Below are positions 1-48,007 of a stretch of DNA of 64,000 nt, piece after piece (positions within the stretch are counted from its first letter, which is position 1; every line of letters begins with the position of its first letter). A model generated the notes under the pieces. That model saw nothing but the letters and a program-made list of their open reading frames with translations, searched no databases and had not been told where the DNA came from. Origin of the DNA: a phage. The stretch lies in sequence record PX880102.1. One strand, given 5' to 3'. Made by a program: the position numbers and the translations under genes.

Positions 1-693
1 TTGCTCTGGAAACTCTCTATTGATTTGTTCAAGCGCTCTATTATGTTTAGAATTACTACGAATTGAACTACATCCGCCAGGAGCTTGTGCTTTTCCAGAT
101 ACAACTAGATATTTGAACAAGGCCAAATGCGGATAACCTTGATTAATTAAATTGAGAAATGCATACATATCTTCGCATAAATCAATTTTTCCATACCCAA
201 TTTGTTCTGTCGTAAGTTTTCCGAGGTCATACCATGTATTCGTGAATCCATATGAATTTTCACGATAATTACCCCAAGATGAAGTAATTTTAAAAATTGG
301 TAGACGAGCATGGCCATGATAATACCCGCAATCCATGGCATCTTCAACGTATTGAATTAATTCATAGAACTGTTCACGAGTTAATTGATTAACTTTATCT
401 ACGCAGCGACGATCATCTCTCTTTCGCATTGAACTCATACGAATAGTAGTATCATCGTCAATCATCCAGATTCGTTGACCTGCATACATATCAGTAATTG
501 CTTTACGAGTTCCAGCAATTCCGTTTACATCATCAGGAATAGTTATAATTTTAGCTCTAGACCCATAGGCATCATAATAAGCTTTTTCTTCATGCTCACG
601 CACTACAATATGTGGTTCATAATCAGTCGGAAACATATCAAGGGCAGAAACTGCCCCGACACGCTGATAGCTTGGAATTACGAATTGAATCAT
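1..693 (-). CDS. Glycosyltransferase, N-terminal 231 codons (3' end beyond window); DxD-type, possibly beta-glucosyl-HMC-alpha-glucosyltransferase-like
   Basis: Hand translation of minus strand from ATG 693..691 (ATGA overlap with gene 42 stop) is open to position 1; contains WMIDDDTT motif; starts MIQFVIPSYQRVG, unlike T4 beta-gt as I recall it. Confidence 0.6.
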   Translation of the reverse strand, partial: MIQFVIPSYQRVGAVSALDMFPTDYEPHIVVREHEEKAYYDAYGSRAKIITIPDDVNGIAGTRKAITDMYAGQRIWMIDDDTTIRMSSMRKRDDRRCVDKVNQLTREQFYELIQYVEDAMDCGYYHGHARLPIFKITSSWGNYRENSYGFTNTWYDLGKLTTEQIGYGKIDLCEDMYAFLNLINQGYPHLALFKYLVVSGKAQAPGGCSSIRSNSKHNRALEQINREFPEQ

Positions 694-17846: not shown

Positions 17847-18317
17847 TTAATCATGTGTCCACACCCCATCGGTATTTGACCAAAGTCGCTGATTATCTGA
17901 TCCTCGCCACAGCTTTTTAGTCGGAAGATTTTTTTCATACTTCCCATCAATAATAACATCAACATATTTAAGCATTTCTAGTTGTTTAATATCTTCAAAC
18001 TTATATCCTGTCCACAACCAAATGCTTTTATTGGGATAAAGATTTTTTACTGTTTGAACCACAGAGTGAATCACGTCTCTGTTATCAGGATAAAGAGGGT
18101 CACCCCCAGTTATAGTTAATCCTTCTATATAATCATTATTCAAACATTCAATTAATTGTTCTAGTGTTTCACCAGTGAATGGAACACCATTTCTGGCATT
18201 CCATGTTGATTTATTATAACACCCTTCACATTTATGCAAACAACCTGTAACGAAAAGAACGACCCTGCAACCAGGGCCATTCACAAAATCGCAAGGATAA
18301 AATCTATCATAATTCAT
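17847..18317 (-). CDS. nrdG: Anaerobic ribonucleotide reductase activase NrdG (radical SAM)
   Basis: 156 aa as in T4; CxxxCxxC cluster motif (CLHKCEGCYN). Confidence 0.92.
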   Translation of the reverse strand: MNYDRFYPCDFVNGPGCRVVLFVTGCLHKCEGCYNKSTWNARNGVPFTGETLEQLIECLNNDYIEGLTITGGDPLYPDNRDVIHSVVQTVKNLYPNKSIWLWTGYKFEDIKQLEMLKYVDVIIDGKYEKNLPTKKLWRGSDNQRLWSNTDGVWTHD

Positions 18318-20131
18318 TGGTGTTTAACCCTATGCATGATTTCTTTATTTTTACCGAGATTAAATCCGCGTTCGTTCGGATTTCCCAAATAACCGCATGT
18401 TCTTCTTATGGTATTCATCTTTTTAGGATCAGTTTCTCCACAAATAGAACAAACAAATCCGTTTTCAGTAGGAGTCATTTCATGGGTACTTCCGCATGTA
18501 AAACATTTATCTACTGGCATATTAACACCAAAATAATCTAAATGTTGTGCAGCATAATCCCACACGGCCTCAAGACCTTTTAAGTTATTTTTCATATCAG
18601 GAAGTTCAACATAAGAAATGTGACCACCTGTCGCAATGAAATGATATGGTGCTTCGCGAGAAATCTTTTCAAACGGAGTAATATTTTCTTCTACTGAAAC
18701 ATGGAAACTGTTAGTGTACCAACCTTTATCGGTAACATCCTTTACACTTCCATATTTTTCGGTATCAAGTTTACAGAAGCGATAACAAAGGTTTTCAGCA
18801 GGAGTAGAATACAAGCTAAAAGCAAACCCAGTTCTTTCAGTCCACTGCTTAAGACGAGCATTCATTTTAGTTAAAATTTCCTGTCCAATATCACGACCGA
18901 CAAGAATATTCAATTCGTGAATACCAATGTATCCTAGAGACACTGAACTTCTGCCATTTTTAAATAACTCAATTATGTCGTCATCAGGTTTAAGACGAAC
19001 CCCGAATGCGCCTTCTTGGTAAAGAATAGGAGCAACAGTCGCTTTAACTCCTTTTAAGGAACTAATTCTACACATCAAAGCTTCAAAACACAAATCCATT
19101 CGTTCATTGAATAATTCAACAAATTTCTGTTCATTGAATTGTGTTCCAATATAAGAATCTAACGCGATGCGAGGAAGATTCAGTGTTACAACGCCAAGAT
19201 TATTACGTCCATCAAGAATTTCATTACCAGTCGAATCTTTCCATACGCTCAAGAAACTACGGCAACCCATTGGAGAAACAGGAATAGATGAGCCGGTGAT
19301 AACTTTATTGTTCTTAGCTGAAATAATATCAGGATACATTCTTTTGCTTGCACACTCTAAAGCAAGCTGCTTAATATCATAGTTCGGATCGTCTTTATAA
19401 AGATTAACACCTTCTTCAACGAACATAACAAGCTTAGGGAAAATAGGAGTTATCCCATCACGACCAAGACCTTTAATACGATTTTTCAGAATTGCTTTCT
19501 GAATCATTCGTTCAGTCCAGTCAGTTCCTGTACCAAATGTAATTGTTACAAAAGGTGTTTGTCCGTTTGAGCTAAAGAGAGTATTTACTTCATATTCATA
19601 AGCTTGGAATGCATCGTATACATCTTTTTCTGTTTTAGATTGAGCATAATTCAACGCATCAGCGATTTGCCATTTTTCTGCATCCTCAATATGTTTTGCA
19701 TAGGTGCGTTTAACATAAGGAGAAAGTACTTTATCTACATTAGCAAAAGTCGTTCCGCCGTATTGATGGGAAGCAACCTGTGCAGTAATTTGTGCCATAA
19801 TTGCAGTAGCAACACCGATTGATTTAGGAGTTTCAATCTGTGCATTACCAAGCTTAAATCCGTTCTCAAGCATTCCTTTTAAATCTACTAAACAACAATT
19901 AGTAAATGGAAGAGCAGGGGAATAATCAATATCGTGGAAATGAATAATTCCGCTTTCATGCGCTTTCATAATAAAAGACGGGACCATATTTTTGGCAATG
20001 TGTTTAGACACAATACCAGCCATAAGGTCCCGTTGAGTTGGAAAAACACGAGAATCTTTATTAGCATTCTCGTTTAAAAGGTCTTTATTAGTTTTATGAA
20101 TCAATCCTTCAATTTCTTTTTCAATTGTCAT
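18314..20131 (-). CDS. nrdD: Anaerobic ribonucleotide reductase NrdD, uninterrupted
   Basis: 605 aa continuous ORF; C-terminal glycyl radical motif RRTCGYLG; Zn-ribbon CFTCG...CSICG. Confidence 0.95.
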   Translation of the reverse strand: MTIEKEIEGLIHKTNKDLLNENANKDSRVFPTQRDLMAGIVSKHIAKNMVPSFIMKAHESGIIHFHDIDYSPALPFTNCCLVDLKGMLENGFKLGNAQIETPKSIGVATAIMAQITAQVASHQYGGTTFANVDKVLSPYVKRTYAKHIEDAEKWQIADALNYAQSKTEKDVYDAFQAYEYEVNTLFSSNGQTPFVTITFGTGTDWTERMIQKAILKNRIKGLGRDGITPIFPKLVMFVEEGVNLYKDDPNYDIKQLALECASKRMYPDIISAKNNKVITGSSIPVSPMGCRSFLSVWKDSTGNEILDGRNNLGVVTLNLPRIALDSYIGTQFNEQKFVELFNERMDLCFEALMCRISSLKGVKATVAPILYQEGAFGVRLKPDDDIIELFKNGRSSVSLGYIGIHELNILVGRDIGQEILTKMNARLKQWTERTGFAFSLYSTPAENLCYRFCKLDTEKYGSVKDVTDKGWYTNSFHVSVEENITPFEKISREAPYHFIATGGHISYVELPDMKNNLKGLEAVWDYAAQHLDYFGVNMPVDKCFTCGSTHEMTPTENGFVCSICGETDPKKMNTIRRTCGYLGNPNERGFNLGKNKEIMHRVKHQ

Positions 20132-22145: not shown

Positions 22146-22535
22146 TTAATCCAAAATATTATTAGGCATTGGTTGAACACTCGCAAGTTCTTTAAAGAAC
22201 TCAGTAGAGTCAGGTAATTTAACCATTTCCGGAGCATGCTTGCTAAATTTGTGTTTACAATGACGGCATTTATATTCAAGTTCCGGTTTACGCCAATTAA
22301 TTAATTGAACCTGTTCAGTACCGCATTCAGGACAATTAGGAACGTTTTTAGAAGCCCTTTCGCGACGTTCAACCATAGCCATAATAGCATCCCAGGCTGG
22401 AGGTTTAAAGTCTAAATCATCACAACCATGAATCTTTCCACGCATTTCCAGATCGTCTTCTTCACCAGCCATAATAATTTTAATTAGACTGGAATTACTT
22501 GAAGCTGCAATATCTTCTAATAGACGCTTTTTCAT
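22146..22535 (-). CDS. Hypothetical zinc-ribbon protein
   Basis: ORF track 129 aa; CPECG...CRHCKHKF paired cysteines. Confidence 0.5.
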
Positions 22536-23461
22536 TTCAATACCTCAATAGCATTACGTAAACCATTTGCTTTCGCATTAAGAGCTTTTAACAATTTGGT
22601 GTGTTCGGCAATCTGGGCTTCAACTTCAATCAAACGAGCATTGAGATATTCACGTTCTTCGCTCAAGTTATCAATCTTTTCTACTTTAGGCTCTTTTACA
22701 ACTGTCTTATATGTATTAGGGTTCTTCAGTTTAATTAGAATACGTGAACTGTATAACATTGAACCATTATCTTCGATTTCATCATACATTTCTACTACGT
22801 CCATGATTTTTAACATCATGCGGAGTTTATAAGACAACGAACGAATAGTTTTGTTGTGCTTATTAATTTCTTTAGAGTTCATGGTGCCAAGATTACGTGA
22901 GTAATAATAAGGAACCTGGATATTAATTAACACTGATGAACCACCTGGCTTGTGTGTTACTTCATCAGCAATAACCCAATCCTTAACATGAACTGTATTT
23001 GTACGGTCATCACCAGCAGTAAATAGTTTGCGAGCATGCTTAAAAAGCATATTCACTTGGTCATTGAATTGACAAGCAAATTTATCAGCAAATTTAGTTT
23101 CAGGAATGGTAGATAACCAATCAGCCAAGTGGGTCTTTTTAACATCGTTAACAATAGTAAATTCAACCAAATCGGTTATAGATGTTGCAGATTTAATGAA
23201 GCTCGGCTTCATTAAGTTTTTAATGTTATCGCGAGCTACAGTAGAAGATAACATACGAGAACGTTTAAACCATTCAAGCAAATTGCCTAACGAATGAGAA
23301 TAAGCGTTTTGAGTATCTTTACAGATATGATTTTCCTGACCAACATATTGAAGGAAATCACGAAGAATATTATTGATTACTGCTCTGTGTCCGATTTGAT
23401 AATTACGGTGTTTAGTAATAAGACTGTCAAAATAATCAATATAATGTTTACGAGTTTTCAT
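22532..23461 (-). CDS. Hypothetical protein with C-terminal coiled coil
   Basis: ORF track 309 aa; heptad-rich C-terminus. Confidence 0.55.
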   Translation of the reverse strand: MKTRKHYIDYFDSLITKHRNYQIGHRAVINNILRDFLQYVGQENHICKDTQNAYSHSLGNLLEWFKRSRMLSSTVARDNIKNLMKPSFIKSATSITDLVEFTIVNDVKKTHLADWLSTIPETKFADKFACQFNDQVNMLFKHARKLFTAGDDRTNTVHVKDWVIADEVTHKPGGSSVLINIQVPYYYSRNLGTMNSKEINKHNKTIRSLSYKLRMMLKIMDVVEMYDEIEDNGSMLYSSRILIKLKNPNTYKTVVKEPKVEKIDNLSEEREYLNARLIEVEAQIAEHTKLLKALNAKANGLRNAIEVLK

Positions 23462-29034: not shown

Positions 29035-30048
29035 TCATTTATAATAACTTCGGTGGTTTTCAAGATAAACCCTCTCAAGGAAGTCATCCCAGAAACCCAT
29101 ATCTACTTTTTGCTGCATACCGTTCTTAGAAGCTTCAATGGATGCTGCTTCTACTTGATCGACCACATCTTCCAAAAACTCTTGAACTGTTTTAAACGGA
29201 TGTTTACCCAACTTCACGTCGAGAATAAATGGAGCATCTTGAAGTGGATAAATCAAGTCGCCAGTTTTATAAATTTCCAATAGTTGAAGTCCACCACGAC
29301 AAGCATGACTCAAAGCTTTCCAGTCAATGCCCTCATTCGCTTCAGCCTTACGAGCACGTTCGCCGTATTCAGCATCAAGTTTATTCAAAGATTGCTTAAG
29401 CTCAATAAGAGAAAGCGTTGTCTGATATTTACGACCCAACACTGTGTAAAACGTCTGTGGGCCTGTTTTCTCATGATTATGAAATACCCATTCACAGAAT
29501 TCGTTCTCTGGAAGACGATGCTTAATATCTTCAATCTTAGTTCGACGTTGCTTAATGGAACCGTCTTCTTGATAATCAACCCACTGATCAGGGATTTGAT
29601 TAACTACTTTCAATACATCACGTAATGCGGCCAAACGAGAACCCTTGACGCCGTATTTAGAAGCTTGCTTGCGAACATATCCTAAATAGGATTTCATGTT
29701 AGTCGTATAAAAACGAGAACGGTTGTCTTGAATAAACTTCCATACATCAGGCAAATCAGATTTAACTACTAGTTCCGGTGGAGTGTGGAGCATATCCAAT
29801 GCTACAGTTTCACCATCTGCTGCTAATTTAAAGAAATACTTAAGACTGTATAGTTCATGGTCAATATCATCTTTAGTGTTTTTAGATGATGTGTTGTTAG
29901 TGTTTTTACTCATATGCTCTTTAACATTTCCGATAAGAATATCACGAGCAGGAGGAACAAAGATTTCTTTAAAATCTACATCAGATTCTGGAGTAGAAGT
30001 TCCATAAAGATGACTACCAAAATAGCTTTTCATTACTGTTTTCATCAT
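29035..30048 (-). CDS. Pol-beta superfamily nucleotidyltransferase (nrdC.11 position)
   Basis: 337 aa; GS-x10-DVD motif (GSHLYGTSTPESDVDF); ATGA coupling to upstream gene. Confidence 0.55.
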   Translation of the reverse strand: MMKTVMKSYFGSHLYGTSTPESDVDFKEIFVPPARDILIGNVKEHMSKNTNNTSSKNTKDDIDHELYSLKYFFKLAADGETVALDMLHTPPELVVKSDLPDVWKFIQDNRSRFYTTNMKSYLGYVRKQASKYGVKGSRLAALRDVLKVVNQIPDQWVDYQEDGSIKQRRTKIEDIKHRLPENEFCEWVFHNHEKTGPQTFYTVLGRKYQTTLSLIELKQSLNKLDAEYGERARKAEANEGIDWKALSHACRGGLQLLEIYKTGDLIYPLQDAPFILDVKLGKHPFKTVQEFLEDVVDQVEAASIEASKNGMQQKVDMGFWDDFLERVYLENHRSYYK

Positions 30049-30506
30049 TCAGCCTTATATTCAATAACAGGACATACTTTAGCTTTACGAGCTTTTAAAA
30101 ATTCGACGATAATCGATTTCTTGGGTTGAATAGGAGGTAAACCTTTATACGCTCTATCAATATTTTCTACGTGTAAAGCATAATCCTTTTTCCATTTATA
30201 ATCTTTATATTTTTCATGCAAATGTGCAGGAATAACAAATGAACCGATAATAAGTAAAACAACCAAAAGCGCAAGTATAAATGCCGATGGAAGAAGAGTC
30301 CATAAACTACCGAAAATAAGCCAACGTTGTAGGCTTTCTGCACAAATAATTGTTAGCCCTACAAGTATAGCACATCCAAAAATAGAAACGAAAAATGTAG
30401 GAATGGCAATAGACCAAAAATATGCGCATAGTGTCTTAGGTCGTTGCCATTCATCGTTAAACAATTTGAATAATTTATAATGCCAAGAGTTTTCATTAAT
30501 AATCAT
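30045..30506 (-). CDS. Hypothetical multi-pass membrane protein
   Basis: ORF track 153 aa; three hydrophobic segments. Confidence 0.5.
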   Translation of the reverse strand: MIINENSWHYKLFKLFNDEWQRPKTLCAYFWSIAIPTFFVSIFGCAILVGLTIICAESLQRWLIFGSLWTLLPSAFILALLVVLLIIGSFVIPAHLHEKYKDYKWKKDYALHVENIDRAYKGLPPIQPKKSIIVEFLKARKAKVCPVIEYKAE

Positions 30507-30508
30507 AA

Positions 30509-31030
30509 TTATCCTTTCATTGAAGGCGTAACAGTTGTTAAATACTTAATCATAGCTTCAGCTTCTGATTTTGATAATGAAATTTCTCCATTGTTTTGAC
30601 GAATAGAAATAAAATCCGGATGACGGTCACCACCAGCTTTTAAAACACACATATAAGTATCAACTTCATCTTCAATATTTGAAATGATTGAAGCAGTTCC
30701 ACATGAATGCGGTTTTTGATAAATCAATGCAGCTTTTCTTCCGCCATTTGACTGTTCATAAACTTTTAATACATCAAACAAATCACTTCTTTTATCAATA
30801 GCTAAAATGTTATTTTCATCTTCAATGTTAAATCCTTCGGATACTTCATAAAGTGTCACCCATAAATCGCCAATATCAATAACAGCGTTCACTTTTCCAT
30901 GACTTTCAAGAGCATGACAAATTTTCTTGATTTCGTCATAACTCATTTTAATAATATCATCTCCTTGACTAAGAAAGATGTCATTTTTAAATTCAACACG
31001 AATTAAACCACTTCCACTTGAAATAAACAT
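30509..31030 (-). CDS. Hypothetical protein (paralogue of next gene by C-terminal motif)
   Basis: 173 aa; C-terminus AEAMIKYLTTVTPSM resembles DEAIALKTYLDSVIPTM of 31037..31594. Confidence 0.5.
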   Translation of the reverse strand: MFISSGSGLIRVEFKNDIFLSQGDDIIKMSYDEIKKICHALESHGKVNAVIDIGDLWVTLYEVSEGFNIEDENNILAIDKRSDLFDVLKVYEQSNGGRKAALIYQKPHSCGTASIISNIEDEVDTYMCVLKAGGDRHPDFISIRQNNGEISLSKSEAEAMIKYLTTVTPSMKG

Positions 31031-34134: not shown

Positions 34135-34143
34135 ATCACCTTC

Positions 34144-34329
34144 TTAAAGCGTATTCACATAAGCTATTAATTCGTTTTCTTTCTTATCAAACCGATCAGC
34201 AAATTCTTCTTGCTGTTCGGGAGATAGCGGGCCGTATTCATCATAAAAGGTGTTTGCTTCTGTATGCTCATCTAGAAGTTCATGGATAAGCTCAAACAAT
34301 TTATCTTTTTGTTCTTTACTCAGACTCAT
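34144..34329 (-). CDS. Hypothetical acidic protein (tk.1 position)
   Basis: ORF track 61 aa. Confidence 0.45.
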   Translation of the reverse strand: MSLSKEQKDKLFELIHELLDEHTEANTFYDEYGPLSPEQQEEFADRFDKKENELIAYVNTL

Positions 34330-34495
34330 ATATTAATTTCCAGGAGTTTTAAAATAATTCGCTTTTGCTTAAATATTTCCATAGTTAAATGACCAGTATC
34401 TTTTTGACCGATTCCAATGGCAAAACCTTTATTGACAGCGAGTTCAATTAAATTATCAAGCTCACGTAACACTTCATATTGTAACTCAGAACTAT

Positions 34496-34723
34496 TCATT
34501 TTGGTTTACCTTCTTTAACGAAATCAGGATAAGGATAAAATCCTGAATAAAATCCTTCACCTTTATGATTGATGCATCCTTTATTAGAACAATAGCACCA
34601 ATAATCGAAATCACAAGCCATTTCATCATTACATAAAGCAAAAACAACTGGCCATTCACACTTTTCGCAGTGGGCATTTTTAAGAATACTAGTTTGGCTC
34701 ATAACCATGTAACCTTTAAGCAA
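34496..34723 (-). CDS. Hypothetical Cys-rich protein
   Basis: ORF track 75 aa. Confidence 0.4.
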   Translation of the reverse strand: MLKGYMVMSQTSILKNAHCEKCEWPVVFALCNDEMACDFDYWCYCSNKGCINHKGEGFYSGFYPYPDFVKEGKPK

Positions 34724-34911
34724 TATTCTTCTACATGTTGTTTACGACCTTTCTTATCAATAAAGGTATATTCAACGAATGTTCCAATATAGTCTTTATC
34801 TACATCATGTGGGCTATTAATTGGGCATTTAGTACGGCAAATGCGTTCCCATTGACGAATAATTTCCACTTTGTTTTTAGGATCAAACGGATGAGGGTAA
34901 TGTACTTTCAT
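34699..34911 (-). CDS. Hypothetical protein
   Basis: ORF track 70 aa. Confidence 0.4.
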   Translation of the reverse strand: MKVHYPHPFDPKNKVEIIRQWERICRTKCPINSPHDVDKDYIGTFVEYTFIDKKGRKQHVEEYCLKVTWL

Positions 34912-35362
34912 AATCCACCACTATTAAATCAATATCAGGAGTAAACATGTCAATTAATTTAGAAACCTTATCCCAATCACCACCGGCAATACCGCAACCG
35001 ATGCGTGGAATGTAAATTACTGGTTTAAACAAAAGGGTTTCTGCCTGTAGATTTAATTCTATCATACAGTTTACTAAAGCACCATAATCAAGATTAGGAC
35101 CCGGTTCGTATTGCGTATACAAATTATAGCACATACTAAATCCTGTAGGATTATGTTTAAAAACAATAGACATATCGCCTAATTTATCACGAGAACCGTA
35201 CTCGGTAGTGGTTTTATCTATTTCTAAAATTTTGGGATAGGCTCTTGCTAATTGACCTGCTACGCCAGAGCCCATTGTGTGGAAGCAATTGCACCCGTGC
35301 GCAATAATATTACCTTGAAGAAATAGGGCGACAATATCGCCCTTGATATATTTTACAATCAT
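34883..35362 (-). CDS. Macro-domain-like protein (putative ADP-ribose binding or hydrolase)
   Basis: 159 aa; pattern GDIV...IAHGCNC...GSGVAG...IYIPRIGCGIAGGDW parallels macro-domain motifs; not verified by search. Confidence 0.45.
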   Translation of the reverse strand: MIVKYIKGDIVALFLQGNIIAHGCNCFHTMGSGVAGQLARAYPKILEIDKTTTEYGSRDKLGDMSIVFKHNPTGFSMCYNLYTQYEPGPNLDYGALVNCMIELNLQAETLLFKPVIYIPRIGCGIAGGDWDKVSKLIDMFTPDIDLIVVDYESTLPSSV

Positions 35363-36734: not shown

Positions 36735-36764
36735 ATTATACCACAGTCAAGAGGAAAAGTAAAC
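36735..36764 (-). promoter_or_regulatory. T4-type early promoter upstream of regB
   Basis: GTTTAC and GTGGTATAAT on minus strand. Confidence 0.6.
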
Positions 36765-38912: not shown

Positions 38913-39386
38913 TTATTTGAATGATTTGACGTACTGAATAGAGCCTTTACTATTCACGAAAGCGATTTTACCATTTTTGTTATACATTGTAGCAGTACGC
39001 TGATAACCATAAGTTTGTTTACCAGATTGATAACCAACTAATGCAAAATTATCTTCGCCCATTTTATTCTGTTTGGCGCGGATACGTTCATGACCGTGCG
39101 CCATAAGAACCTTAGCATCGCCAGTTGAAATTGATCTACGAGTTTTTTCATCTTCAACTGTATTAACAAAGTCGTCAAATGAATCAAATTTAGCATGAGA
39201 TTTATTATACAGTTTTCCATCTACTGCATAATTATATCCCTGTACATCCATCTCAACTTCTGTACCATCATCCAATACAGCAGTAATTTTTTGACCTTTT
39301 TTAAATTTCAAAAGATCAGTAAAAGATTCAGCAATAATTTGAGAATTAATAGCTGCTTCAGTGATAAATTCTTGATATGTTTTCAT
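38913..39386 (-). CDS. Internal-protein-like head protein with capsid targeting sequence
   Basis: 157 aa; N-terminus MKTYQEFITEA is the T4 internal-protein capsid-targeting leader. Confidence 0.65.
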   Translation of the reverse strand: MKTYQEFITEAAINSQIIAESFTDLLKFKKGQKITAVLDDGTEVEMDVQGYNYAVDGKLYNKSHAKFDSFDDFVNTVEDEKTRRSISTGDAKVLMAHGHERIRAKQNKMGEDNFALVGYQSGKQTYGYQRTATMYNKNGKIAFVNSKGSIQYVKSFK

Positions 39387-39395
39387 ATATTTCCT

Positions 39396-39812
39396 TTAAA
39401 TGTAAATATTTTTGCCGTAGTATTTATACCAGTGTGGCTTCATTAAAATTTTTTCATTGAGTCGTTGTTGACTCAATTTAATAGCTGATTTGCATGGGTT
39501 ATAATCATTTTTCCATTCTGCTGAAATATCGCTGATGTCAGGAACTTCAGTATCTTTTATACTGAACCCACGTTTTAAGCATTCCGTTATAATGTCTGAT
39601 TGACGCTTTCGCAAAAATTCTAACTTATCGTAAAAGAACGTAACATGACCAGAACCTAAAATAAACTCGGAAGATATTTTAAAATCTTTAACCCGTTTAC
39701 CATTTGCCACATGTTTACGAACTATACCAAAAACACGTGGCAATTCACGGTATTCTGCGATTAAATGTTGATCAGCAAGTTCAGATACTAAAGTCAAATT
39801 AATACGAGTCAT
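39396..39812 (-). CDS. denV: Endonuclease V (pyrimidine dimer glycosylase) DenV
   Basis: 138 aa; N-terminal [17 protein letters not shown] matches T4 DenV from memory. Confidence 0.92.
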
Positions 39813-40402: not shown

Positions 40403-40858
40403 TTAAAAGAGGCTGTTCATTATTCGGTAAAGTGAAGGACCCATCACATATTGCCACTGAGTACGAGGAATAAGGGCAAAAGCATCCATCTCTGGAATCA
40501 TAACACCATCTTTATTTTCAAAATAAGACTCGCAATGGCAATTTCTAAACATCTCATGCTCTACTGGAATCGTATAATAAAATAACTGTAAGTCTTTATT
40601 ACTAGAATATTTAAATACACCTAGGTCTTCTAGAAGGTCTGGATTATAATTGTTAAAACCAGTCTCTTCTGAGCATTCTCTTTTTGCAGCTTCCAGTGCA
40701 TTCAAATCAGAACTTTCTACACGCCCCTTTGGAATATCCCAGCGATGTGCCATCATTCCAGGTTTACGAGAACCAGTAACTCGTCCCATAAATAAATCTT
40801 TATCTTCTGTCATAAAGATAATACCAGCTGATAATGTTTTCATTTTAATTTCCTGCAT
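40403..40858 (-). CDS. nudE: Nudix hydrolase NudE
   Basis: 151 aa; Nudix box GRVESSDLNALEAAKRECSEETGF. Confidence 0.85.
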   Translation of the reverse strand: MQEIKMKTLSAGIIFMTEDKDLFMGRVTGSRKPGMMAHRWDIPKGRVESSDLNALEAAKRECSEETGFNNYNPDLLEDLGVFKYSSNKDLQLFYYTIPVEHEMFRNCHCESYFENKDGVMIPEMDAFALIPRTQWQYVMGPSLYRIMNSLF

Positions 40859-44426: not shown

Positions 44427-44900
44427 TTATTTGATTTGTTTAGCAGACCAAATGCGGTCTTTAATAATTTTTTGAATGTCTTCAACATACTCAAGAGAGT
44501 GAACATGTGGATTATCTTTGAAACTATAAGCACGGGCTAACTTTTGGCCTTCGGTTTTGATTACTAAAAGCTCTTTAAGGATAGCTTCATATTTAGAGAT
44601 AATTCCTTTAACGATATTTTTTTCTTGTGCAGCTTTAGGATCTGCTTTAGGAGCAGGTTTACCCGAAGCCTTTGCAAAAGCAGCGCCAGTAGCAACTAGA
44701 CTTTTCCAGGCCATACTAACCGCATTTCCCGTAAATCCTTCTGCTTTCATGTCGCGAGCAAATTGGAATCGTGATTCGTCAGAAGCATCTTTATAGGAAT
44801 ATTTACCCGCTGCAATGGCTGCTTTTGCGACAGCTTGAATTTCGGTGCTAGATGCTTCATTTAACACCGCTTCATTTAAAAATTGAGTATATGATTTCAT
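44427..44900 (-). CDS. Internal-protein-like head protein with capsid targeting sequence
   Basis: 157 aa; N-terminus MKSYTQFLNEA resembles the internal-protein leader; terminator follows. Confidence 0.55.
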   Translation of the reverse strand: MKSYTQFLNEAVLNEASSTEIQAVAKAAIAAGKYSYKDASDESRFQFARDMKAEGFTGNAVSMAWKSLVATGAAFAKASGKPAPKADPKAAQEKNIVKGIISKYEAILKELLVIKTEGQKLARAYSFKDNPHVHSLEYVEDIQKIIKDRIWSAKQIK

Positions 44901-46608: not shown

Positions 46609-47241
46609 TTATTTATTACGTGAAAAAGACTGTTCTATCAATTCTGGACACTTTCGTTCTATCCATTTTCTAGCTTTTTGTGGGCTTATACCTATTATTT
46701 TAGCAGCTTTACTAACCCATCCAAATTTAGAATAATCGATTTTAACTAATTCTTCGTAAATTTCATCAGTTAAAATCTTTTCATTAATATTTACCAGTAA
46801 ATGATATAATTTATTATCATTAGCAATTTTAATGAATCTTTTATAGTTTCCGCCTTTACTTAAACCTAATGAAGTAATTGCAGATGATATAGTAGCCGAA
46901 TTTAATAACGCGTTTAAAATTTCTTCATCACTAACATTATAACGCTTTTTATTATTTTTAATATTTTTACCAGCAAAAGTATCAGTTTGCGAATGGCAGT
47001 TTGGACATAATAATCTTAAATTAGATTTAAGATGATTTTTGTTATTTCCATCAATATGGTCTAATTGCAGAACAATATGCTTATTTTGCCATTTTGAAAT
47101 TTTACAAATTGCACACTCATATGGAAAAATATTTTCTTTTATTATTTTGTCTTTCAGCTTTCCTGTACTAAAATTTGGATGTTTTCCTTCAAAAATTTCA
47201 GCTAATTTAGTATCCATAATATAATTCCCAATTATTAACAA
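46609..47241 (-). CDS. HNH homing endonuclease, free-standing, abutting the tRNA array
   Basis: 210 aa; HNH motif HIDGNNKNHLKSNLRLLCPNCH with extra Cys pair CAIC; stop 7 nt from tRNA-Leu. Confidence 0.75.
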   Translation of the reverse strand: MLIIGNYIMDTKLAEIFEGKHPNFSTGKLKDKIIKENIFPYECAICKISKWQNKHIVLQLDHIDGNNKNHLKSNLRLLCPNCHSQTDTFAGKNIKNNKKRYNVSDEEILNALLNSATISSAITSLGLSKGGNYKRFIKIANDNKLYHLLVNINEKILTDEIYEELVKIDYSKFGWVSKAAKIIGISPQKARKWIERKCPELIEQSFSRNK

Positions 47242-47327: not shown

Positions 47328-47621
47328 TTACCATTTATGATAATACATATTTACGATGCATTCAAGACCCAAAGGATTCTTGAAAATATCATATTCAAGA
47401 GGACCTTTTTCTGTTTCAATAAAGAAATCAAAATTTACTGTATTAAATTTACGGTCTTCCTTTACTAATTTAACTTGAGAAGATGAACGGTCAATGTAAA
47501 CCTTTTCAACTTCAAAATATGTTAAAATGCCATAATCATCAATCAAGGCTTTAGCTGCTTCTTGATCATATTTATATCCATTTTCAATGGATGATACTTT
47601 CGCATAAAGAATCATTATCAA
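47328..47621 (-). CDS. Hypothetical protein
   Basis: ORF track 97 aa. Confidence 0.45.
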   Translation of the reverse strand: MIMILYAKVSSIENGYKYDQEAAKALIDDYGILTYFEVEKVYIDRSSSQVKLVKEDRKFNTVNFDFFIETEKGPLEYDIFKNPLGLECIVNMYYHKW

Positions 47622-48007
47622 CCTTCATCAACAATAGTGTGCGTATTGGCATTAACTATTTGCCACCAATCAAAGCGATTAGAACCATACATCGGTTTGT
47701 TTTCATTTTCTTTGATAATATCACGGAGTTCATCTTCGGTAGCGGCTTTCGCTATTAAATCAGCATATCCACCACGAGGATAATAATTATCACCTGCAAA
47801 AAGTAAAAAGTTTGGTTTAATGTTATTGAACTCTTCAAGAGTAATAACTTTTCCTGACGGTTGAACAATCTCTACATATTTATATCCCAATTTTTGGGCA
47901 GCATCTACTGCTTCAAGCAAAGTATCATGAGCCCATCCAATTTGACAGCCTGGCTTTTCAGATGGATTAGCCTGATAATCCGCATACACTTTATACATTC
48001 TATTCAC
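47618..48007 (-). CDS. Hypothetical protein
   Basis: ORF track 129 aa. Confidence 0.45.
   Translation of the reverse strand: MNRMYKVYADYQANPSEKPGCQIGWAHDTLLEAVDAAQKLGYKYVEIVQPSGKVITLEEFNNIKPNFLLFAGDNYYPRGGYADLIAKAATEDELRDIIKENENKPMYGSNRFDWWQIVNANTHTIVDEG

Follow-up and report, generated by a model that had tools for sequence, protein, structure and literature searches.

What role does the small open reading frame between vs and tk.3 play in a T4-like phage? In the window analysed here (the whole 64,000-nucleotide stretch of phage DNA, record PX880102.1), this frame occupies positions 34883..35362 of the minus strand. A sequence-only reading had proposed that it encodes a macro-domain protein able to remove ADP-ribose marks. 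Translation confirmed that the frame is real: a single minus-strand reading frame runs from an ATG at 35362-35360 to a TGA at 34885-34883 and yields a stand-alone protein of 159 aa. The four motifs on which the proposal was based are all present, namely GDIV (residues 8-11), AHGCNC (21-26), GSGVAG (31-36) and IPRIGCGIAGG (118-128). The annotation of phage teqskov includes this same CDS of 480 nt.

The window derives from a Tequatrovirus. It shares 98.6% identity over 1.8 kb with Shigella phages ESh25 and CM8, and it is collinear with the part of T4 between about 25.4 and 89.9 kb. The slot of the ORF, between tk.3 and vs, is the one occupied by tk.4 in T4, and the alignment with T4 Tk.4 is ungapped over 155 aa (58% identity, E 8e-71). 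Both synteny and full-length identity support the assignment of the ORF as the syntenic orthologue of T4 tk.4. In RefSeq, T4 tk.4 is labelled "phosphatase; contains A1pp phosphatase motif", and GenBank records carrying the window allele use "macro domain protein", "Appr-1-p processing protein" or "phosphatase". As the function of the T4 orthologue has been published and a macro-domain annotation stands in many records, the feature is to be considered already known.

The vs stop codon and the tk.4 start codon overlap in ATGA (35359..35362, minus strand), which suggests translational coupling. A Shine-Dalgarno-like GAGGA element is located at 35378-35374 on the same strand, 11 nt upstream of the ATG. 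At its 3′ end tk.4 overlaps the start of tk.3 by 29 nt (34883..34911, minus strand), and the protein ends in LPSSV, four residues beyond the ...PLL end of T4 Tk.4. The protein has 12 Lys and Arg against 17 Asp and Glu, a net acidic composition that DNA-binding enzymes do not usually have. A consensus scan gave as the best sigma-70-like match upstream of regB the sequence TTTACT-17-TATAAT with TG (36735..36763, minus strand). This candidate early promoter of a regB-vs.1-vs-tk.4 transcript is only a lead; in that scan promoter-like sites were not above shuffles (19 versus 22.8 expected). A 7-bp GC-rich hairpin, AGGGCGA-TATTG-TCGCCCT (35325..35343, minus strand), spans tk.4 codons 7-13 and is identical in T4. 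We rejected it as a terminator, as it lies 20 nt inside the CDS, is followed by a weak T-run and is conserved with T4; its presence inside tk.4 may be incidental.

The macro-domain assignment holds by sequence and by structure. The protein matches the Pfam Macro profile (PF01661) with 33.8 bits, above the gathering cut-off of 22 (E 3.7e-8, profile positions 2-117 of 118). Searched as a single sequence against PDB chains, it retrieved Bacteroides BT1257, yeast Poa1p, SCO6735, the M. tuberculosis DarG macrodomain and human TARG1; with a 69-sequence family profile the matches to these chains strengthened to E values of 1e-19 to 1e-12. An AlphaFold2 model, for which the 69-sequence family alignment without the T4 row was used as input, reached a pLDDT of 94.7 and a pTM of 0.89, and Foldseek ranked TARG1, Poa1p, DarG and BT1257 at the top. 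All these matches are macrodomains, and the profile search that had been suggested as a check for another fold returned the macro fold only. The fold is the alpha/beta one of macro domains: the beta-sheet at its centre is mixed, and two glycine-rich loops line the ADP-ribose cleft.

Structure and sequence both place the protein nearer to TARG1, DarG, SCO6735 and Poa1p than to MacroD, viral, PARG or macroH2A domains, which supports its classification as a stand-alone macrodomain of the ALC1-like class. In the PADLOC and NCBIfam libraries the best or only match is a DarG profile. The PADLOC match spans the macro part alone, and NCBIfam NF048014 (DarG) is matched at profile positions 2-142 of 338 with 28.9 bits, the cut-off being 250. 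Identities of the family are 26-29% to BT1257, 21-24% to DarG and 20-23% to TARG1, so that the three are at roughly equal distance.

The residues expected to line the ADP-ribose cleft were then located by translation and alignment, all coordinates referring to the minus strand. The motif H22-G23-C24-N25 (35288..35299) contains three residues that are invariant in the family (H22, G23 and N25); in DarG, the conserved macrodomain Asn is aligned with N25. The first glycine-rich loop, the GxG loop of the cleft (G31-S-G-V-A-G36, 35255..35272), aligns with MGKGIA of DarG and MGAGIA of TARG1; G33 and A35 are invariant and G31 is nearly so. The second, phosphate-binding loop is P119-R-I-G-C-G-I-A-G-G128 (34979..35008), with P119, G122 and G124 invariant and with A126 at the position of TARG1 D125. 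Between both loops lies N80-L-Y-T-Q84 (35111..35125), which places Q84 where DarG (K80) and TARG1 (K84) have their catalytic Lys. MAFFT, HMM and hhalign alignments (97.8% probability in the latter) all line up NLYTQ with NFPTK of DarG and YLITK of TARG1; the DarG and TARG1 reference sequences used are 100% matches to PDB 5m3i and 2lgr.

Among 69-70 phage and bacterial relatives the invariant positions are Q84, H22, G23, N25, C26, G33, A35, D49, N80, Y82, P119, G122, G124 and W130, and almost all bacterial relatives with a readable motif have N[ALGC]YTQ. Q84, H22, G23, N25, G33, G122 and G124 are retained in T4 and window alleles alike.

A Gln at the catalytic-Lys position has a characterised precedent. 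SCO6735, a stand-alone macrodomain of Streptomyces coelicolor with Gln85 at that position, is faster than DarG or TARG1 at stripping from DNA the thymidine ADP-ribose made by DarT (PMC9411070). It rescues DarT toxicity, mutant Q85A being inactive and N27S nearly so, and its authors proposed a route that does not depend on lysine: Gln would position the distal ribose, and a water held by the backbone would initiate the reaction (PMC9411070). The catalytically dead variants SCO6735 Q85A, DarG K80A and TARG1 K84A inhibit DarT in vitro, SCO6735 being the strongest (PMC9411070). By chain-numbering offset, H22, G23 and N25 of the window protein correspond to H24, V25 and N27 of SCO6735, and G124 corresponds to G128. 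The equivalences to H24, N27 and Q85 derive from chain-numbering offsets, the BT1257 profile alignment and the structural alignment published with SCO6735 (PMC9411070); the direct residue alignment to SCO6735 (5e3b) covers the C-terminal loop only.

The biological role of the gene has been addressed for the T4 allele. T4 lacking both adfA and adfN is still resistant to DarTG2 (PMC11825919), so a further anti-DarTG2 factor was to be expected. A preprint of November 2025 named T4 tk.4 adfM, for anti-DarT factor Macrodomain: when a T4 transposon library was grown on a DarTG2-expressing host, tk.4 was the single significant gene, and a clean tk.4 knockout sensitised T4 to DarTG2 (bioRxiv 10.1101/2025.11.20.689424). 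Loss of tk.4 had no reported effect on fitness in the absence of DarTG2, and enzymatic removal of ADP-ribose from DNA by Tk.4 is the authors' proposal, inferred from homology (bioRxiv 10.1101/2025.11.20.689424). A challenge with DarTG-carrying hosts, suggested by the sequence-only reading as a check, had therefore already been carried out by others, with the T4 allele only. The idea that the protein removes ADP-ribose, including that put on DNA by DarT, is supported by this phenotype and by the in vitro cleavage of dT-ADPr by two relatives of its class, SCO6735 and PhiKZ gp104; it is right in substance and already published for the T4 allele.

Taking these data together, the ORF is the tk.4/adfM gene of a T4-like phage, and we consider it quite probable that its product acts early, removing DarT2-made thymidine ADP-ribose from phage DNA, with Gln-type chemistry as the likelier one. 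Fold, class, orthology and residue equivalences were established by the present comparisons; for the window allele, 58% identical to T4 Tk.4, we infer enzymatic activity, substrate and mechanism. Early in infection, Tk.4 would bind the ADP-ribose that DarT2 has put on thymidine of single-stranded phage DNA and would hydrolyse the base-ribose bond, giving free ADP-ribose and a replicable template. Restoration of the template would neutralise the abortive-infection defence of DarTG2. In an SCO6735-type reaction, Q84, held by the conserved N25, would position the distal ribose and a backbone-held water would start the reaction, without a lysine Schiff base. Replacement of the catalytic Lys of DarG and TARG1 by an invariant Gln makes this chemistry more likely. 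As the longer mobile loop, K34 and K89 of SCO6735 are absent from the phage family, its mechanism may not fully transfer.

The divergence of tk.4 from its T4 counterpart is confined to a sharply bounded segment. Amino-acid identity to T4 is 98.7% for regB, 100% for vs.1, 97% for vs, 58% for tk.4, 93% for tk.3 and 99.5% for tk. Sliding identity (60 nt) delimits a divergent allele cassette at 34870..35326 (minus strand), with about 50-72% nucleotide identity to T4 and 93-100% on both sides: the first 36 nt of tk.4 are 100% identical, identity falls to about 50-72% from 35326 to approximately 34870, and tk.3 recovers 93-98%. The drop starts directly 3′ of the conserved 7-bp hairpin, which marks the 5′ edge of the cassette. 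The window-type allele (at least 90% identity) is found in about 313 GenBank phage records and the T4-type allele in about 224; a third group, 80-90% identical to T4, accounts for about 159. Active-site residues are kept in all three groups, where checked.

Such a pattern is consistent with the exchange of cassettes at a locus under an arms race, but it would also arise by ordinary T-even mosaicism. A bolder reading would be that the slot holds at least three deeply diverged alleles adapted to different variants of DarT2 or to further base-directed ADP-ribosyltransferases, among them enzymes that ADP-ribosylate uracil in RNA, or that the short-loop Gln-type family constitutes a mechanistically distinct, lysine-independent subclass of ADP-ribosyl-nucleic-acid hydrolases. 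We regard this as a rather doubtful, although not negligible, proposal.

Removal of ADP-ribose from DNA has also to be weighed against the names under which tk.4 is annotated. Tk.4 could be an ADP-ribose-1''-phosphate phosphatase or an O-acetyl-ADP-ribose deacetylase acting on small metabolites, as suggested by the A1pp label of T4 Tk.4 in RefSeq, by the label 'phosphatase' of PHROG 335 and by some JGI records in which relatives are named 'O-acetyl-ADP-ribose deacetylase'. These names are homology transfers. Poa1p ranks among the top sequence and structure matches, and its catalytic His23 and Ser30 are aligned to H22 and T29 of the window protein; as the His position is conserved, small molecules may also serve as substrates. 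ADP-ribose-1''-phosphate arises from tRNA splicing of the Tpt1/KptA type, and splicing of this type is not known to be part of T4 RNA repair, which speaks against a phosphatase. Furthermore, T4 tk.4 has shown a single phenotype, and this is DarTG2-specific (bioRxiv 10.1101/2025.11.20.689424). An activity on small molecules, which may well occur in vitro, leaves that phenotype unexplained, and as a side activity it is compatible with removal of DNA-linked ADP-ribose as the main function. As the principal function, we therefore consider it improbable.

A soluble target of another kind was suggested by a comparative survey, in which soluble ADPr derivatives were argued to be the targets of most Macro, NADAR and Nudix domains in phages (PMC9503650). 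Applied to this locus, Tk.4 would degrade or sequester ADP-ribose-derived signals or toxins of TIR, Thoeris or other NADase systems rather than repair DNA. A few bacterial relatives adjoin NADAR or NAPRTase genes, and a Nudix gene is located 5 kb from tk.4, the nudE orthologue at 40403-40858 (94% identical to T4), whose T4 counterpart is annotated as a Nudix hydrolase with ADP-ribose and NADH as substrates. That NudE disposes of the ADP-ribose released by the macrodomain is speculation. The survey provides a prediction for phage macrodomains generally, whereas the phenotype of the T4 orthologue is DarTG2-specific and the closest characterised proteins act on macromolecule-linked ADP-ribose; a soluble signal is accordingly a very improbable target.

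The bacterial relatives bear both on the origin of the gene and on whether catalysis is needed. By tblastn, homologues are present in 2,768 of 50,697 phage records, and when one genome per bacterial species was scanned with a pattern, at least 502 loci were confirmed. In the 80 bacterial loci inspected the homologues are stand-alone proteins, mostly of about 150 aa and 34-44% identical, some ORFs being predicted longer (up to 244 aa). No DarT2-like sequence was detected within 4 kb of these 80 loci by tblastn with P. aeruginosa DarT2 as the query. A Pfam scan of 135 neighbouring ORFs revealed no recurrent partner family: among the 25 top families listed none has more than five members, the commonest being class I tRNA synthetase (five loci), Exo_endo_phos (four), NADAR (three) and NAPRTase (two). 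A rare DarT neighbour outside the families listed is conceivable. Stand-alone relatives without DarT and with mixed neighbours indicate that phage tk.4 looks derived from a housekeeping-type stand-alone macrodomain like SCO6735, not from an orphaned DarG. A class I aminoacyl-tRNA synthetase gene adjoins the macro homologue in 5 of about 70 bacterial loci, and phage tk.4 adjoins vs, the valyl-tRNA synthetase modifier; this parallel is probably a coincidence or reflects shared descent in one bacterial family.

The ADP-ribose-site residues are strictly conserved in distant relatives beside which no DarT partner was detected, and this suggests that selection acts on catalysis. Such conservation argues against stoichiometric blocking of DarT2 by Tk.4, through binding of the toxin or of its modified DNA, with no need for catalysis. 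Such blocking would be in keeping with the inhibition of DarT by the dead SCO6735, DarG and TARG1 variants mentioned above, and the binding retained by SCO6735 Q85A means that Tk.4 protection could be partly non-enzymatic. Since, in addition, the window protein has no DarG-like C-terminal DarT-binding domain, we give very little credence to binding as the whole explanation. The proposal that Tk.4 reverses or tunes the phage's own Alt, ModA and ModB modification of host proteins or RNA found no support: T-even phages do encode three ADP-ribosyltransferases and tk.4 does lie in an early-region cluster with the RNA-processing gene regB, but the Alt/Mod enzymes target arginine while the known targets of ALC1-like macrodomains, Glu/Asp esters and the bases thymine and uracil, do not include it, no ADP-ribosyltransferase gene adjoins tk.4 in the window and, as stated above, its loss without DarTG2 has no reported fitness effect, all of which leaves this proposal hardly credible.

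The window differs from T4 at several other points. The tk.1/tk.2 interval (34140-34700) is replaced: a 61-aa ORF at 34144-34329 is 54% identical to Tk.2, no counterpart of T4 tk.1 is present in the interval, and the ORFs at 34326-34499 (57 aa) and 34496-34723 (75 aa, Cys-rich, with a TTG start) have no T4 match. Within the segment that is otherwise 95-100% identical, diverged orthologues are also nrdC.3 (60%, 22532-23461), trna.3 (57%, 47618-47998) and denV (77%, 39396-39812). At the left end, a 231-aa ORF (1-693, minus strand) that runs off the window adjoins gene 42 at the position of the T4 beta-glucosyltransferase and has no T4 match; we presume that it may be a different type of glucosyltransferase, as in T2/T6-like phages. 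Two 157-aa ORFs without a T4 match, at 38913-39386 and 44427-44900, have similar N-termini (MKTYQEFITEA... and MKSYTQFLNEA...), which we take to resemble the capsid-targeting leaders of internal proteins; the former is placed where T4 has ipII/ipIII. Mobile-element differences were noted at 30045-31030, 46609-47217 and 18314-20131. In the window, mobD of T4 is replaced by two ORFs without a T4 match, and the tRNA region contains, at the place of T4 segB, a 202-aa ORF with no T4 match, for which an HNH-like nature is a guess. The nrdD gene is one continuous 605-aa ORF, aligned to T4 nrdD over 70% of its length, and the I-TevII intron is probably absent from it.

DarTG systems ADP-ribosylate DNA and so halt the replication of phages, against which T-even phages combine several counter-measures, AdfA, AdfN and AdfM. 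A common T4-like lineage has the macrodomain arm of this counter-defence in intact and strongly diversified form. Three points have practical weight for phage therapy and for work on defence systems. The phage from which the window derives likely encodes DarTG2 resistance. The commonest natural tk.4 allele, that of the window type, differs from the allele that was tested, that of T4. Tk.4 probably works independently of the lysine of DarG and TARG1, which matters both for mechanism studies and for inhibitors aimed at DarG-type active sites.

Compared with known systems, tk.4 of the window represents no new kind. It shares with T4 Tk.4/AdfM the slot, the ATGA coupling to vs, identical first 12 codons, a similar length (159 versus 155 aa) and the residues H22, G23, N25, G33, Q84, G122, G124 and W130. 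It differs from T4 Tk.4 in having only 58% amino-acid identity while neighbouring genes have 93-100%, in the phosphate loop (the family consensus IGCGIAGGDW, versus IGAGIGKGNW in T4) and in the four-residue C-terminal extension by which it overlaps tk.3.

PhiKZ gp104, the macrodomain of the chimallivirus nucleus, is likewise a phage-encoded stand-alone macrodomain that counters DarTG2; it removes DarT2 ADP-ribose from an oligonucleotide in vitro, with reduced activity in mutant N23A (PMC13309987). Unlike the Gln-type window protein, gp104 is DarG-like, with a Lys in the motif FPTK. The family profile matches gp104 with an hhalign probability of 96.3%, and BLASTP aligns it with the window protein in two short segments only (E 0.001). 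Orthology of tk.4 to gp104 was rejected on account of the Lys-type motif and of these short segments, and independent acquisition looks like the origin of both genes. Two independent studies have given the name AdfM to these non-orthologous macrodomains, for gp104 (PMC13309987) and for T4 Tk.4 (bioRxiv 10.1101/2025.11.20.689424).

Identity with the DarG antitoxin was also rejected, as the protein has Q84 in place of K80, no C-terminal domain and no adjacent darT. DarG of M. tuberculosis and T. aquaticus has about 340-350 aa, compared with 159 aa in the window protein, which does not have the C-terminal DarT-binding domain; no darT lies beside tk.4 in the window, its neighbours being vs and tk.3. 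With respect to TARG1/OARD1, the K84/D125 dyad is replaced by Q84 and A126. Human TARG1/OARD1 and yeast Poa1p, 20-24% identical to the window protein, have other physiological roles.

A parallel in active-site composition is SCO6735, with which the window protein shares the HxxN motif and the Gln at the catalytic-Lys position; its phosphate loop PRIGCGIAGGDW aligns with the nearly identical PRIGCGLAGGTW of SCO6735. Having both this Gln and the conserved Asn, the window protein is predicted to fall into the Gln-type subclass. Unlike SCO6735 and BT1257, the phage family does not have the mobile loop that is longer by 5-6 residues, nor its K89: relative to the family profile, BT1257 has a 6-residue insertion right after the Gln (HMM alignment), and hhalign aligns this region of the family to DarG ungapped. 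Where SCO6735 has K34 and DarG K29, the window protein has S32, and the phage family Ser or Ala. A further difference from SCO6735 and BT1257 is that the window protein is virus-encoded and would be used against a host toxin. Within the ALC1-like class, the T-even family can best be regarded as a Gln-type branch with a short loop.
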